From an uncultured archaeon (GTDB lineage: Archaea > Altiarchaeota > Altiarchaeia > JAFGQM01): a stretch of 64,000 nt of DNA. Below the pieces are notes generated by a model. That model was given only the letters and a program-made list of their open reading frames with translations. It was not told the origin of the DNA and made no database searches. Numbering within the stretch: the first letter of the stretch is position 1; every line of letters begins with the position of its first letter. This document shows positions 372 to 42,213 of this stretch, in pieces. Location: assembly GCA_964592405.1 (NCBI GenBank), contig CAZQBY010000005.1, positions 1 through 64,000 of the forward strand, read 5' to 3'. A program made the position numbers and the translations under genes.

Positions 372-1538
372 ATGGGTGAAAATGCCAAGGAGGGTGGAAA
401 CTTCAGGGTTCTTTTCATAAGCTCATCTTCAAGGTTTCGATTGCCGGAGAGAAGGAGCGCCTACAGGAAGAAATTTAGGGGTCTCTCGAAGATAGGCGAT
501 ATGAATTATATAGCTGTCTCGGATGATGGGGGCAGAAGACACGCCTGTGTGGGGGCCATGGAGCTCCATTTGGCTCCCAAAACAGGATTTAAGCCCCTTG
601 ATGTGATGCTGTTCCTGATATTTGCCCTTTTGGAGGGGTTGAAAATCATCAGGAAACGCAGAATAAACATTATATATGCCCAATCCCCGTTGCTTGACGG
701 GTGCATAGGATGCCTTTTAAGAACCCTTACCGGTTGCAAACTGATAGTGGGTATCCATGGCGACTGGGCTGGTGAGATACAGTATTCCAAACCGGGGTTG
801 GCCAGGTTTCTGCCTCTGATAAATCTTATCGCCAAGATGGTTCTCAGGAATGCCGATGTCGTGAGAGTCATCTCAGAGGCCACTAAAAGGCGGGCTCTTG
901 AGTTTATCCAAAAGGACAAGATTTTTCCTGTCATGTTTCCTGCGTTTTTTGATGCGGAGTTCTTTCTGGAGAGGGAGATTAAACATCCCAAGGAGGACAG
1001 TGTGGTGTTCGTCGGATCCCTTATAGGAAGGAAGGGGGTCAAATATTTGCTGGGGGGGATTCGAACAGTAATCGCCGAGTATCCAAAATTTAGGTTATAT
1101 ATTTTAGGGAGGGGGAACAAAGAGGGTGAACTGAAAGATTTGTGCAGAAGACTTGGCATAGAGGATAATGTCCAGTTCCTTGGACACCAGCCAGCCGAAG
1201 TGGTGATGGAATATATTGACAGGAGTCTGGCACTGGTGCTGCCATCACTCTCAGAAGGGCTGGGGAGAGCTGCACTGGAGGCTATGGCTAGGGGAAGACC
1301 TGTAATAGGTTCGCGGGTAGAGGGTATACTGGAGACTGTGAATAATGACCGGGGGTATCTGATACCTCCAAAAGATTCAAACGCTATTTCCTCTGCTATT
1401 TTGAGTATTCTGAGAAACAAAGCGGAAGCTATGGATAAGGGCATGAAGGGGCGGGAGTATGTTGCGGGGGAATATTCGCTGGAGAAGTATCTGAACAACT
1501 ATAAGGAATTATTTCACTTCACCCTGAGGGATGCATGA
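372..1538 (+). CDS. Glycosyltransferase family 4 (GT-B)
   Basis: FVGSLIGRKG and LPSLSEGLGRAALEAMARGRPVI (EX7E) motifs. Confidence 0.9.
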   Translation: MGENAKEGGNFRVLFISSSSRFRLPERRSAYRKKFRGLSKIGDMNYIAVSDDGGRRHACVGAMELHLAPKTGFKPLDVMLFLIFALLEGLKIIRKRRINIIYAQSPLLDGCIGCLLRTLTGCKLIVGIHGDWAGEIQYSKPGLARFLPLINLIAKMVLRNADVVRVISEATKRRALEFIQKDKIFPVMFPAFFDAEFFLEREIKHPKEDSVVFVGSLIGRKGVKYLLGGIRTVIAEYPKFRLYILGRGNKEGELKDLCRRLGIEDNVQFLGHQPAEVVMEYIDRSLALVLPSLSEGLGRAALEAMARGRPVIGSRVEGILETVNNDRGYLIPPKDSNAISSAILSILRNKAEAMDKGMKGREYVAGEYSLEKYLNNYKELFHFTLRDA

Positions 1539-2641
1539 GATAACACATCCAGTGTCCGCTCCATAACTGTATCCCATGAGTGAGCCCTTACCTTTGTTTT
1601 GGCGGCTTTGATAAGCTTGTTTGAATTCCCTTCAACTGCCCTGATTATGGTGTTTCTTAGTTCCTCCTGATTTAGGGGCTCTATCAGGAATCCGGTTTTC
1701 TTGTTTTCTACCAGTTCGGGGTTACCGCACACATTTGTTGCCACTATGGGTGTCTGGAGGGCCATCGCCTCAAGGAGGACATGAGACATTCCCTCATAGA
1801 GGGAGTTTAGGACTAATACCCTAGCAGATGCTATTTTTTGTATGGTATCTTCATGAGAGAGATTACCAAAAAAATGGATTGTATGTGGGCACAGTTCTCC
1901 TGCCAAAGCTTCCAGCTCCGATCTGTATGGACCATCACCAACTATCCACAACTCCGCACCCGTCTTTTCCCATATCTGGGGCATTACTCTTATGAGTTCT
2001 TTGATGCCCTTCCACGGAACCAGCCGGGCTACAGTTATTATGGCGTTCTGTTTTGTTGGGTGTATTGCCTTTAGAGCAGCAAGGTCCACTGCATTCGGAA
2101 TGATAACTATCTTTTCTTTGGGAACATTGTGGTATTTCGTCAACATGCGGCTGAGGAAGTTACTGGGTGTTATTATCCGATCCGCATGCCTGAAGACAAA
2201 CCTCTCCACTCGGAGTATATTTCTGTTGGCATCAGGATTTTTCAGGAAGTCTTCAAGAAATTTTTTGGTCTTTCCCTCCCTGAAGGCCTTCTCCCAAGCC
2301 GTATCACCAACATATTTGACAATCACCGGTCTGCCGCAGAGTCTGCCAGCCAAGACGGACGGGAGACCTATTGCCGCAGGATTTTGGGCATATATAATGT
2401 CGCAGTGCCGGGCAGCTTTCAGTATGTTAATGAAGAGTGATAACTGCCGTAAAAGCTTGTTCCTAGAGCGCTTGATTTTTCTTATATCAATACCATTGGG
2501 TCTTTCAACTTCAGAATCTGCAAGTGTAATTACTGTGATTTTGTGGCCAAGAGCGGTGGCCCTCTTGGAGAACTCATAAGCATAGGTCGCCGGGCCAGCT
2601 GCCTCAGGTGGAAAGACAGAAGAGGTTATCAGTATTTTCAT
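1514..2641 (-). CDS. Glycosyltransferase family 4
   Basis: MKILIT..FPP..GPA N-terminus; VARLVPWKG; SLYEGMSHVLLEAMA; 3' end overlaps the convergent GT4 by 25 nt. Confidence 0.9.
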   Translation of the reverse strand: MKILITSSVFPPEAAGPATYAYEFSKRATALGHKITVITLADSEVERPNGIDIRKIKRSRNKLLRQLSLFINILKAARHCDIIYAQNPAAIGLPSVLAGRLCGRPVIVKYVGDTAWEKAFREGKTKKFLEDFLKNPDANRNILRVERFVFRHADRIITPSNFLSRMLTKYHNVPKEKIVIIPNAVDLAALKAIHPTKQNAIITVARLVPWKGIKELIRVMPQIWEKTGAELWIVGDGPYRSELEALAGELCPHTIHFFGNLSHEDTIQKIASARVLVLNSLYEGMSHVLLEAMALQTPIVATNVCGNPELVENKKTGFLIEPLNQEELRNTIIRAVEGNSNKLIKAAKTKVRAHSWDTVMERTLDVLSHASLRVK

Positions 2642-36568: not shown

Positions 36569-39436
36569 ATGATGGATGATGCTGATGGGAAAGACCAACA
36601 ACAGAAAGACCAGCAACAGGAGGCCGGCACTCCAAACGACCCAACAGTCGGCAGTATCGGAAGGCAGATAATCCCTCAAAATATTGAGGATGAGATGAAG
36701 GAGTCATATATAGATTACTCCATGTCAGTCATAATAGGGCGCGCCCTGCCGGATGTCCGCGACGGACTAAAACCAGTTCACCGTAGGATACTCTATGCCA
36801 TGAATGAACTTGGTCTACAGCACAATAAACCATATACCAAATCCGCCACTGTTGTTGGTGAGGTTCTTGGAAAATACCATCCCCACGGAGATACTGCAGT
36901 CTATGATACTCTAGTCCGCATGGCGCAGGACTTCTCACTGCGCTACCCACTCGTTGATGGTCAGGGTAACTTTGGTTCAATAGACGGGGATCCCGCAGCT
37001 GCTTACAGATATACTGAAGTGAGGATGTCCAAGATAGCCGGCGAGATGCTTGCCGACATTGAGAAGAACACCGTCGATATGGTATCAAACTACAACGAGA
37101 CACGGCAGGAGCCCACAGTACTCCCCTCCAGATTTCCAAACCTCCTAGTCAACGGATCATCCGGCATAGCCGTCGGCATGGCTACGAACATGCCCCCCCA
37201 CAACCTATCCGAAGTCATTGACGGAATAACCGCTACCATAGATAATCCCCAAATAACGATTCAGGAGCTCATGCAGTATATCAAGGGCCCGGATTTCCCA
37301 ACAGGAGCCACCATTTGTGGTCAGGGCGGCATAGTCCAGGCCTATACAACTGGCAGGGGTAGTATCAGGATAAGGGCAAAGGCAGAAATAATAAAAAACA
37401 AAAACAGGGAGTCGATAATCGTCACGGAAATACCCTACCAGATAAACAAGGCCAACCTGATAGGCTCCATAGCCGAGCTGGTTAAGGATAAGAAGATAGA
37501 TGGCATCTCGGATATAAGGGACGAATCTGATAGAGAAGGTATGCGCATAGTCATTGAGATAAAACAAGGGGCGCAGGCCGATATTGTCCTGAATCAGCTC
37601 TACAAACATACGGCCATGGAGGCCACTTTTGGTGTCATAAATCTTGCTCTTGTAGACAACAAACCCGTAGTTCTCACTCTCAAGGGGCTCATAACCAATT
37701 TCATAAAACATCGCAAAAACGTCATAACACGAAGATGCCAGTTCGAACTCAAAAAATCTGAGGACCGCATCCATATTCTTGAGGGCTTCAGAATAGCTCT
37801 CAACAACATAGATGGTGTGGTCAAGCTCATCAGGGGTTCAGAGAACATAGAATCGGCCCGCACAAGTCTTGTCAGCAGTTTTGGGCTTTCGGATAAACAG
37901 GCCAAAGCCATACTGGAAATGCGCCTCCAGAAGCTGACCGGTCTGGAGCGTGAGAAAATAGAGCAGGAATATGGGGAACTTCTCAAATACATAAAGTGGT
38001 TAAAGGAGGTCTTGGCTGATGAGGGGCGGATTCTCCAGATAATCAAAGATGAACTTGCTGAAATAAAGAATACCTATGGAGATGAGAGAAGAACTGAAAT
38101 AGGTGAGGCAGTTGATGATATTGATATTGAAGATCTGATACCTGAGGAGCGCATGGTTGTTTCCATAACCAACCAAGGATATATCAAGAGACTGCCCCTG
38201 ACCACATACCGTGCACAGAGAAGAGGGGGCAGGGGAGTCATAGGGATGGATACAAAGGAAGGAGATTTTGTCGAACAGCTTTTTATAGCCTCAACCCATG
38301 ACTACATGCTTTTTTTCACCAACAGGGGACGGGTTTACTGGCTCAAGGTCTATCAGCTTCCAATTGCAGGGCGGTATTCCCGCGGCTCAGCGATAGTAAA
38401 CCTCCTCCAACTGGAAAAGGATGAAAAGGTGGAGGCCGCTATCAGAATAAATGAGTTCAAAAAAGGTTATTATCTGGTAATGATAACCAAGGAAGGCCTG
38501 ATAAAAAAGACAGAGCTGGAGGCTTACAGCCGTCCGAGGAAGGGGGGAATAATAGGGATAAGACTCAGGGAGAATGATGAGCTGGTAAGTGTTCTCCTGA
38601 CTAAAGGAGATGACGAGATACTGGTCTCAACCAGAAACGGAAAGGTAATAAGGTTTAGTGAAACTGATGTGCGCGCAGTGGGGAGAAACTCTATGGGAGT
38701 CAGAGCCATAAAACTGAAGAACGAAGACAAGGTGGTCAGTGCGGTGGTCATAGATGTGGAATCGTCCCTTCTCACAATCACAGAGAACGGATATGGCAAG
38801 CGGACGCCGTTCAACAAATACTCCCTTCAAAAACGCGCCGGCCAAGGAGTTATAGATATCAAAACAACTGAGAGAAACGGGGGCGTGGTTGGATCCATAA
38901 CAGTCCGAGAGGATGATGAAATAATGTCCATAACGTCAAAAGGGATTATAATAAGAACCCCAGTCTCTGACATATCCCAAATCGGCAGGAATACCCAGGG
39001 GGTCCGGATAATGAAGCTTGAAGAAGGCAACAAGGTAGTATCCATTGCGCGCATAGTAGGTGAAAAAGAGGAGGAAGAGATAGAGGGCGAAGTGGAAACC
39101 ATGGCAAAAGGTGCAGAAGCAGAAGAAGAGCCTCTAGCCGAAATCGAGAGGATCTCAGAAGAAAGACCTGCGCCCAAAGCCGAAGAGACAGACGAAGAAA
39201 CAAATAAAACAACTATAGAGAGGGCCCTAGAGGAGATCGAGCCGGAGAGAAAGGAGCATACAGAAAAACCTGAAGAGCCTGTGCCAAAGGCGGATAAAAC
39301 CATCTTCCCGAGAGAAGAGATTGATGAACCAAAATCAGGCAGGGAGGTCCCGGATTATCTACTACGCTATATCAAAGCAAATCCAAAATCACCAAAAGCA
39401 ATCAAGGTTGCGCGCGAATATGGTATAGAACTGTAA
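36569..39436 (+). CDS. gyrA: DNA gyrase subunit A with long acidic C-terminal tail
   Basis: [29 protein letters not shown], GyrA-box QRRGGRG, pinwheel repeats. Confidence 0.97.
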
Positions 39437-41238: not shown

Positions 41239-41335
41239 ATTAGAATAGTTAGGGGGGTATATTCGAAGTATGGACCATAAAAAATCAAGATGGTTGCGAT
41301 TCCAAACCTTTTTTTCTAAAAACCTCAATATTATC

Positions 41336-41600
41336 AGCGGGCTAGGCCGGGGAGCTAGGGGTTCCCTCTTTCCCAAAATCCCCTTCAGGGAGCCGAATCC
41401 GAGGGGCGATTCGGTCTGGGTGGAGATGGATGGTTTTCCTCTGTGTCGATCCCTCGTCCCTTGGGGGCACATGTGATCCGAATCTGGTCAGGCCCTGACG
41501 GGAGCAGCCATAAGGATTATGTGTGTCGTCTAAGGAATCGCGAGGGGGAGCATGTAAACCACTCCTATCCATTTGGACCGTCTCCACCCGAGGGCCCGCT
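41336..41600 (+). ncRNA. ffs: Archaeal SRP RNA (7S), atypical: no helix 6, UGAC helix-8 loop
   Basis: Terminal helix AGCGGGC/GCCCGCT; Alu-like 5' GCTAGGCCGGGG; long helix 5; helix 8 GGTCAGGCCC-TGAC-GGGAGCAGCC with the SRP54-binding CAGG/AGCAG loop. Confidence 0.9.
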
Positions 41601-41681
41601 ACCCAATCTTTCAATATGGCTTTTCTTACCCCTTCTTCTAATTTGACACTTGGATCTAAGTGTGTTCTAGGGTCGATCTGA

Positions 41682-42213
41682 GCCGAGGTCGGCGCAAACC
41701 CTCGCGGTTTGCTCACCTCAGCGCTCATAAGCAGAAAGGAAACCTACGCCGAGGTTGGGCGAACCTTCGGTTCGCAACCCTCGGCTAATATTCAGGGAGG
41801 ACGTTCACGCCGAGGTCGGGCTCGCTTCGCTCGCGACCCTCGGCACATTTGTAGAAGAGCTACCTTTGCCGAGGTGGGTGTAAACCTCTGCGGTTTGCTC
41901 ACCTCAGCGCTCATAAGCAGAAAGGAAACCTACGCCGAGGTGGCGGAATCTGGCTAACGCGCCAGATTGGAGATCTGTGGACCTCCTGTCTACCAAGAAC
42001 GGGGGCCATTTCCAGACATCTGGTGCCCTTCGGGGCGTCTGGGTTCAAATCCCAGCCTCGGCGCTTCATTGTCTAAGCGACGCCTCGCGCCGAGGCGTCT
42101 GTTCACCTGCGCAACTTAGCGGCGAACAGGTGAACATCCCAGCCTCGGCGCTTCCTTCTCTAGGCAAATTAGCTGAGGGTCCCTGCAGCTTCGCTGCAGG
42201 TCTGACCTCGGCG
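41682..42213 (+). repeat. Array of six tRNA-Ser acceptor-stem-closed hairpins flanking tRNA-Ser
   Basis: Units GC(C/T)GAGG...CCTC(G/A)GC at 41682-41722, 41748-41785, 41809-41844, 41868-41908, 42089-42149, 42172-42212; spacers 22-26 nt. Confidence 0.85.
41934..42063 (+). tRNA. tRNA-Ser (GGA) with a 45-nt intron at 37/38 (41973-42017)
   Basis: Acceptor GCCGAGG/CCTCGGC-G73; anticodon arm CCAGA-TT GGA G|A-TCTGG; long variable arm GCCC-TTCG-GGGC; T arm CTGGG-TTCAAAT-CCCAG. Confidence 0.93.

Follow-up and report, generated by a model that had tools for sequence, protein, structure and literature searches.

In archaea, mobile elements enter the genome chiefly at transfer RNA (tRNA) genes. In the tyrT operon of Escherichia coli, 178-bp repeats associated with rtT RNA lie in tandem downstream of a tRNA, each ending in the last nucleotides of that tRNA, and are co-transcribed and processed. 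Integron attC sites and the attP site of CTX phage are arrayed imperfect palindromes in which structure is conserved over sequence, certain unpaired bases are conserved, and the hairpin mimics a duplex target. Partial tRNA genes at integration sites are also known from archaeal genomes (PMC9897764). The subject of this study is an array of six hairpin units around a tRNA-Ser(GGA) gene, at 41682–42213 of a 64,000-nucleotide (nt) stretch of archaeal DNA, hereafter the window. In the literature searched, no description was found of a conserved tRNA-tied hairpin family whose members each match the tRNA beside them. The ways in which hosts and elements mould tRNA sites, and the origins of introns, split genes, fragments and other odd tRNA gene structures, are debated questions.

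It was concluded that the units are more likely DNA-level products and landing sites of recombination at tRNA ends than a new RNA system. In the reading that we tentatively prefer, they are partial duplications of the neighbouring tRNA termini, made at the level of DNA, which would behave as miniature non-autonomous elements or scars of attachment (att) sites. Each unit is a true copy of one tRNA terminus joined to a short complementary arm, the downstream copy covering positions 59–73 and the start of the trailer. As the acceptor stem is self-complementary, such a terminus copy with its complementary arm resembles a mini-tRNA hairpin. The features of the locus are listed below; folding z-scores compare each unit with 200 shuffles, and D1 to D6 denote families of direct repeats.

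41335–41601, plus strand: archaeal signal recognition particle (SRP) RNA gene (Rfam RF01857, 103 bits), context, 80 nt upstream of the array
41636–41644, plus strand: T/A-rich box, a possible promoter for the array and the tRNA, proposed from reading the sequence
41682–41723, plus strand: upstream unit 1, a copy of tRNA positions 1–10, an interior stem and a 3' acceptor-like strand with one C-A mismatch; z −3.46
41724–41747, plus strand: spacer after unit 1, duplicating the 5' leader of the tRNA itself (family D1; 92% identity with 41909–41946)
41748–41785, plus strand: upstream unit 2, of a type also present at tRNA-Ser(TGA) and tRNA-Ser(GCT) of the same genome; z −4.58
41786–41808, plus strand: spacer after unit 2, leader-like but diverged (family D1, 71%)
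41809–41844, plus strand: upstream unit 3, with weak interior pairing; z −1.58
41845–41867, plus strand: spacer after unit 3, leader-like but diverged (family D1, 66%)
41868–41909, plus strand: upstream unit 4, a duplicate type of unit 1; z −4.19
41910–41933, plus strand: 5' leader of tRNA-Ser, as read from the sequence
41934–42063, plus strand: tRNA-Ser(GGA), with a 45-nt intron after the anticodon (about 41973–42017); Rfam tRNA, 47.9 bits
42064–42086, plus strand: 3' trailer; trailer-like sequence stands again after units 5 and 6 (families D5, D6)
42087–42151, plus strand: downstream unit 5, the family-wide downstream hairpin (model R1, 30.2 bits, E 1.1e-4); z −6.47
42152–42171, plus strand: trailer copy (families D4, D5)
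42172–42213, plus strand: downstream unit 6, a shorter hairpin with its tail reduced to the acceptor part; z −4.21

An earlier note on this DNA had reported six units around the tRNA gene, and they were found as described, at 41682–41722, 41748–41785, 41809–41844, 41868–41908, 42089–42149 and 42172–42212, with a further G after the first, fourth, fifth and sixth. Every unit starts with GC(C/T)GAGG and ends with CCTC(G/A)GC, the interior stems given in the note are present, and the outer strands match the acceptor stem of the unit's own tRNA. The reported spacer lengths of 25, 23, 23 and 25 nt held for the upstream side, while those on the downstream side are 25–26 and 21–22 nt, depending on whether the G is counted. 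The tRNA-Ser(GGA) gene itself is genuine, being recognised by Rfam and by ARAGORN with introns allowed (41934–42064, 45-nt intron); the default ARAGORN run missed it. Five of the six units are clear hairpins (z about −3.5 to −6.5), and unit 3 is weak (z about −1.6).

Within the array, unit 1 and its spacer are 92% identical to unit 4 and its spacer (family D2). Unit 5 is built from an arm resembling the 5' acceptor strand, a vestigial T arm into which a 10-bp stem is inserted, and tRNA positions 59–73 copied without change (15/15 nt), this copy ending 87 nt past the tRNA. Unit 6 has a 98% copy at the very start of another contig (C14:3–44), and a similar unit was seen by inspection in the relative G007 (locus L132). 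Tandem Repeats Finder called no repeat in the array because the units have diverged from one another; the direct-repeat search recovered the families that it misses. Contigs from three independent metagenome runs match pieces of the array without differences (for example, 41756–41911 and 41912–42063 in run X1). Across four DNA runs with short contigs, no single contig bridges the full array, and some contigs show other joints, which may stem from paralogous Ser arrays. The array sequence is present in runs labelled as hydrothermal vent or marine metagenomes; none of the runs that contain it is registered as RNA.

The window belongs to a 1.13-Mb assembly of 22 contigs, rated 87% complete, hereafter G000. 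When the whole of G000 was scanned for the Ser-type motif pair with a gap of 15–55 nt, 15 distinct hairpins were obtained against about two expected. Six lie at tRNA-Ser(GGA), five at tRNA-Ser(TGA), three at tRNA-Ser(GCT) and one at the first bases of contig C14; no such hairpin was detected elsewhere in that scan. The linkage extends to other tRNAs. A T loop could be recognised in 32 tRNA genes of G000; for 14 of them, the gene's own acceptor strands are repeated exactly in its flanks of 600 nt, 44 times in all (5' strand, 16 copies; 3' strand, 28 copies), against a background of about 0.08 per flank for non-cognate acceptor 7-mers. At 10 of these 32 genes, a copy of the last 15 nt of the tRNA ends 87–94 nt downstream. 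Homology between the downstream units holds over more than 20 tRNA species. R1, a covariance model of these units, was built from 17 examples, all of this family. It gave 17 matches in G000, eight of them outside the training set, and all stand immediately 3' of 14 tRNA genes on the same strand.

This linkage separates the units from repetitive extragenic palindromic (REP) sequences, bacterial interspersed mosaic elements (BIMEs), REPINs and miniature inverted-repeat transposable elements (MITEs), which are likewise short palindromic intergenic repeats and sometimes arrayed. Those elements are dispersed, whereas each copy found here belongs to the end of a particular tRNA and agrees with it in sequence. 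The earlier note had named a REP or MITE family scattered independently of tRNAs as the outcome that would overturn its view; all 17 model matches lie by tRNAs, and 14 of the 15 Ser-type hairpins lie at tRNA-Ser loci. The tyrT repeats form a single bacterial locus with longer units; they are not known to contain an acceptor-strand hairpin or to be a genome-wide family.

Some G000 arrays contain runs of 100 Ns with the same unit on either side (C14:19842–20300, C17 downstream of 6425, C18:8247–8650 and C3:108250–108430). There the assembler probably collapsed repeats or failed to join them, so copy numbers at these places are uncertain. In practice, such arrays break assemblies and can mislead tRNA annotation.

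The downstream unit begins after a pyrimidine-rich trailer of about 24 nt and is a hairpin of about 65 nt that ends in a copy of tRNA positions 59–73, the copied tail thus beginning in the T loop at position 59. In 61 units, the acceptor positions of the outer stem are Watson-Crick paired in 42–60. The stem also pairs the discriminator (43/61), the next base (45/61, wobble counted) and two T-stem bases (52/61 and 45/61). By comparison, T-stem positions 61–63 are paired in only 4–9 of the 61 units and sit opposite two T residues. Inward of the outer stem follow a short ATG/CAT helix and a 5-bp helix. The downstream unit therefore reads as the acceptor/T-arm half of its own tRNA, with the T loop swapped for an inserted hairpin.

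As acceptor-stem-like hairpins that could attract RNase P or tRNase Z in a transcript, the units resemble mascRNA. The same likeness extends to plant mitochondrial t-elements (PMC1920247). Unlike t-elements, however, the units flank the tRNA itself, and they lack an acceptor stem stacked on a complete T stem-loop with an unpaired discriminator; their T loop has given way to other sequence, positions 61–63 are unpaired, and the discriminator is paired in 43 of 61 units. Because of the paired discriminator and the replaced T loop, the downstream units are poor mimics of RNase P and tRNase Z substrates, and the suggestion in the earlier note that the units are substrate-like minihelices was not supported for them.

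The upstream unit is a mirror image of this arrangement, with a copy of the leader and of positions 1–8 or 1–10 followed by an interior stem and the complementary strand. When 68 tRNAs of five genomes were compared, such head copies were found at 17, namely 13 Ser, both His and two Arg(GCG), and they were absent at the 8 Ala, 7 Val and 4 Gly tRNAs of that set. In the sense orientation, TTCG or TTC loops close several of the upstream units. Before tRNA-Arg(GCG) of G000 (C3:108147–108556) and G003 (L122) stand direct repeats made up of about 36 nt of leader and tRNA positions 1–19. The hairpin-rich insert between these repeats measures about 77 nt in G000 and is longer in G003; this 5' duplication differs in kind from the Ser and His units.

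Two further observations concern the 5' flanks of G000 tRNAs. In most genes, counted by eye, the base before position 1 complements the discriminator, often as T with A73, and therefore the precursor could form an 8-bp acceptor helix. Moreover, about 55 nt upstream are alike at tRNA-Pro(GGG) and tRNA-Arg(TCG) (C2:8560–8629 and C3:32137–32206) though the tRNAs differ, as in a common leader element.

The distribution of R1 matches was determined across the class. R1 matched all eight genomes of the family, which are 63–87% complete and represent four genera, with 4–17 matches each; the 53 genomes scanned from eight further families in the class gave no match, although diverged forms could be missed by a model with family-only training. 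Thus, the scan of other tRNA loci and related genomes proposed in the earlier note was positive. A same-strand tRNA lies upstream of 77 of the 87 matches (69 loci). First units (54) start 17–39 nt after the tRNA, 48 of them within 21–26 nt with a mode of 24–25 nt, and 14 second units start at 100–123 nt. The remaining 10 matches comprise two reverse-strand echoes, one cut by a contig end and seven without an Rfam tRNA. By inspection, five of those seven are preceded by a partial tRNA 3' end and one by a probable multi-intron tRNA. In a tail-copy test that does not depend on the model, copies were found at 13 of 30 tRNAs in G000 and, in two other families, at 5 of 10 in G008 and 2 of 22 in G029. 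The inserts in G008 and G029 are 130–310 nt long, lack the complementary arm and start with a T-rich hairpin.

The spacing, distribution and folding of the units also bear on whether they work as RNA. They could be functional modules in pre-tRNA leaders and trailers, such as processing guides, exonuclease blocks or termination aids, selected at a fixed distance; judged from the sequences, this is possible but unlikely. Such a role would fit the fixed distance of the units from the tRNA, whose strand they share, their occurrence in every family genome and at orthologous tRNAs, and the sense-orientation TTCG or TTC loops of several upstream units. The helices show compensatory changes as well. 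In the 87 aligned matches, 79% of cells are paired against 60% in shuffles, and the inner helix is 89% paired with many compensatory types and a covariation score of 0.445 against 0.163 for shuffles. This alignment was fitted to R1 and is hence biased towards structure; an independent MAFFT alignment gave 72% paired against 60%. The earlier claim that sequence varies while structure is kept was therefore borne out.

The predicted transcription of the arrays would fit RNA modules too. A T/A-rich box similar to that of the window was seen by inspection at the Ser loci of relatives, 5' of the first unit or, in G005, of the tRNA itself. When the sequences upstream of tRNAs and units in G000 were compared, no TATA-like box was present in the inter-unit spacers. 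Since the promoter-like box stands before whole arrays and not within them, the arrays are probably transcribed with the tRNA. An RNase P RNA is present in the genome.

However, the strand signal does not fit selection on a sense RNA, because A-C appositions exceed G-U pairs on the sense strand in both the inner helices (23 against 13) and the outer stem (14 against 5), with no wobble excess, and 67 of 85 units fold better as the antisense strand. Judged from these counts, maintenance at the DNA level would be compatible with the signal, as would a structure formed by the bottom strand. Units are confined to about half of the tRNAs, copy number and order vary, and the paired discriminator and unpaired positions 61–63 described above also argue against processing modules. 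Pairing between leader and trailer does not exceed background either (cognate mean −7.9 kcal/mol, non-cognate −8.5 kcal/mol). In the preferred reading of the units as DNA-level duplications, they would ride in the pre-tRNA leader and trailer and would probably be trimmed off by RNase P and tRNase Z, with no product and no RNA role of their own.

The units change together with their tRNAs. Substitutions specific to a lineage appear in the tRNA and in the tail of its unit alike, with the opposite arm lagging behind (for example, at Gly-GCC of G005 and Val-TAC of G002). Interior types at one and the same tRNA differ between genomes, and the order of the array differs between G000 and its sister species G002. 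The three Ser arrays of G000 have unit and spacer types in common, and spacers recur at other Ser arrays and in other genera. Under the duplication reading, recombination at the termini of tRNA genes would create the units and drive their turnover. Unequal crossing-over would expand and shuffle the arrays, gene conversion would hold the copied terminus identical to the tRNA, and either template switching in the near-palindrome or selection on the hairpin would hold the arms paired.

The conserved spacers also bear on another proposal. According to the earlier note, a transcript of the array might be cut by tRNA-processing enzymes into minihelix RNAs and guide-like RNAs of about 23 nt, forming a Cas-free repeat-spacer system. 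The regular 21–26 nt spacing and the acceptor-stem-like hairpins are what such a system would show, and structured repeats that alternate with regular intervals recall clustered regularly interspaced short palindromic repeat (CRISPR) arrays. Unlike in CRISPR, the repeats are not identical (36–61 nt, with varied interiors), the intervals are leader or trailer copies that are 66–92% alike, and Cas1 was without a match. The proposal is disfavoured because the spacers are conserved copies of leaders and trailers, kept between loci and genera and not acquired uniquely, and lack a match to phage records, in which the sole match is of the tRNA part to a phage tRNA. With the discriminators of downstream units paired in addition, we regard this reading as barely credible.

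A link between the units and mobile elements was found at integrase elements of sister genomes. In G001, a 9.2-kb element with a tyrosine-integrase open reading frame (ORF) lies between the tail of tRNA-Ser(TGA) and an exact copy of that tail (L153, G001:C6, 1033–10243), the identical block running from the T loop through four bases beyond the discriminator. In G003, an 11-kb integrase element lies between the tail of tRNA-Thr(GGT) and a copy with one mismatch (L154, G003:C38, 8282–19303), and a unit with that type of Thr tail stands about 0.8 kb beyond the element. A second, similar element end follows the distal repeat in G001, and the tRNA-proximal ends of the G001 and G003 elements have a small hairpin and repeated short motifs in common.

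Among known systems, the units resemble the direct repeats of tRNA 3' ends (attL and attR) that tyrosine-integrase elements make, with partial tRNA genes in archaeal genomes (PMC9897764). In both, a tRNA 3' segment from the T loop is repeated directly, the repeats can be tandem, and the core is the one used by the integrase elements of the sister genomes. The 15-nt tail copies that start at position 59 are such direct repeats; the repeats do not, however, enclose an integrase element. Unlike attL and attR, the units enclose about 75 nt of non-coding DNA that is homologous over more than 20 tRNA species, possess an arm complementary to the repeat, recur across genera and have a mirror 5' form. 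Because the copied 3' segment overlaps the att core of the sister-genome integrase elements, we infer that the units would act as miniature elements or att scars and as extra landing sites.

Extra copies of an att core might also be selected as such, as decoys or landing pads that divert integrating elements from an essential tRNA gene. The overlap between unit tail and att core fits this idea, and by inspection the same element end abuts the tail of the last unit, not the tRNA, at the Ser-GGA loci of G001, G002 and G003. A precedent is the published idea that disruption of a tRNA gene impedes integration (Randau and Soll 2008, cited in PMC4033280). Elements nevertheless also enter at the tRNA itself and displace units, since by inspection that element end abuts the tRNA at the Ser-TGA loci of G001 and G006, and the same applies to Thr of G003 and an orphan array of G007. 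A partial tRNA 3' end stands at the start of orphan unit arrays. Decoys would be selected weakly and at second order, and the complementary arm, the conserved interior and the upstream units are left unexplained. We therefore consider selected decoys improbable. Two proposals of the earlier note, decoys for integrases and scars of a tiny tRNA-targeting element, fit the findings. A stretch of about 40 nt is conserved downstream of the Ser arrays in five genomes (L011, L013, L015, L016, L017 and L024), within apparent element ends; judged from its sequence, an integrase arm site or a small RNA gene may lie there.

Several results weigh against recombination products as the source of the units. 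Tyrosine recombinases (PF00589) had no match in G000, G002, G005 and G007 and were above the cut-off in only two of the eight family genomes. Y1 transposases are sporadic (4/8 genomes), with no conserved single-copy member, and Cas1 (PF01867) was not matched in G000, given its 87% completeness. The integrase elements examined have no unit hairpin at their ends. R1 matched none of 51 viral contigs chosen by the core pattern, a set whose size is about the chance number by a rough estimate. To our knowledge, there is also no established mechanism for a mobile duplex of 90 bp. Furthermore, four genera with compact genomes keep units at the same tRNAs, the trailer has a tightly constrained length, the asymmetric internal loop is conserved, and covariation in the helices is strong. 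The fixed trailer, conserved loop and covariation together suggest that the hairpin is under selection, whether in DNA or in RNA. As a separate observation, not even a Xer-like tyrosine recombinase was matched in the 87%-complete assembly of G000.

Four features thus leave room for functional readings, namely the constant spacing, the asymmetric loop with its conservation, the persistence of units over several genera with compact genomes, and the lack of a consistent recombinase. In the boldest of these readings, the units would be a lineage-specific system in which mimics of the tRNA's own acceptor/T-arm half, changing in step with that tRNA, serve as attC-like landing pads of folded DNA that govern the entry points of mobile elements, or as RNA modules that set pre-tRNA ends. 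We hold this to be unlikely. The palindrome and conserved asymmetric loop of the units would suit attC-like sites, and a slight bottom-strand wobble bias would fit. Unlike attC, the units come with no integron integrase or gene cassettes, their arms are specific to each tRNA, and tyrosine recombinases are unmatched in four of the eight genomes. If the functional reading is true, the units are a class of tRNA-anchored structured elements for which no description was found in the literature searched. By eye, with no formal test, the conserved loop was also considered as a kink-turn (K-turn) and as a bulge-helix-bulge, and both readings were dropped.

Introns offer another origin for the tail copies. 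The units could be stranded former non-canonical introns, in which a T-loop or D-region intron and the neighbouring exon were left outside after a complete tRNA copy had been restored alongside. The tail copies do start inside the T loop at position 59. The G008 and G029 inserts, and the insert after position 19 of tRNA-Arg(GCG) in G003, start with a T-rich hairpin that by inspection resembles the 5' module common to G000 tRNA introns. A probable T-loop intron also occurs in a G002 tRNA (L002, G002:C39, about 1340–1700, minus strand), one of several introns in a probable tRNA that lies upstream of a unit and an SRP RNA gene and was called by neither ARAGORN nor Rfam. However, the family's own 65-nt hairpins lack the intron-like module, and inspection by eye, with no formal search made, revealed no bulge-helix-bulge at the unit borders; the loops in the unit folds face each other and, by eye, are not staggered. 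Neither a reverse transcriptase nor any other mechanism for such stranding is known to us. Stranded introns accordingly appear highly improbable, and the duplication of tRNA termini by recombination remains the reading that we prefer. The introns themselves occur in 17 of the 33 ARAGORN genes of G000 and reach 204 nt, and many have a homologous 5' module with a T-rich hairpin followed by a second small hairpin (C1:69498–69774, C3:32207–32352, C4:59159–59333 and C17:6425–6577).

The family is a natural system in which about half of the tRNA genes have conserved hairpins that match their own tRNA and share the att core of integrating elements. It makes several ideas testable, namely that att sites are multiplied as decoys or pads, that integrases move tiny non-coding elements in trans, and that mimics of the tRNA top half take part in RNA processing.

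Elsewhere, the host is identified as an archaeon by the archaeal SRP RNA at 41335–41601 and by an archaeal RNase P RNA elsewhere in the genome. At 36569–39436 of the window, an ORF of 955 aa that resembles a synthetase lies beside tRNA-Ile. Its closest relatives in the genome collection searched are bacterial (38–67% identity), with one match labelled Methanosarcinales, and by its sequence it looks like a bacterial-type enzyme in an archaeon.

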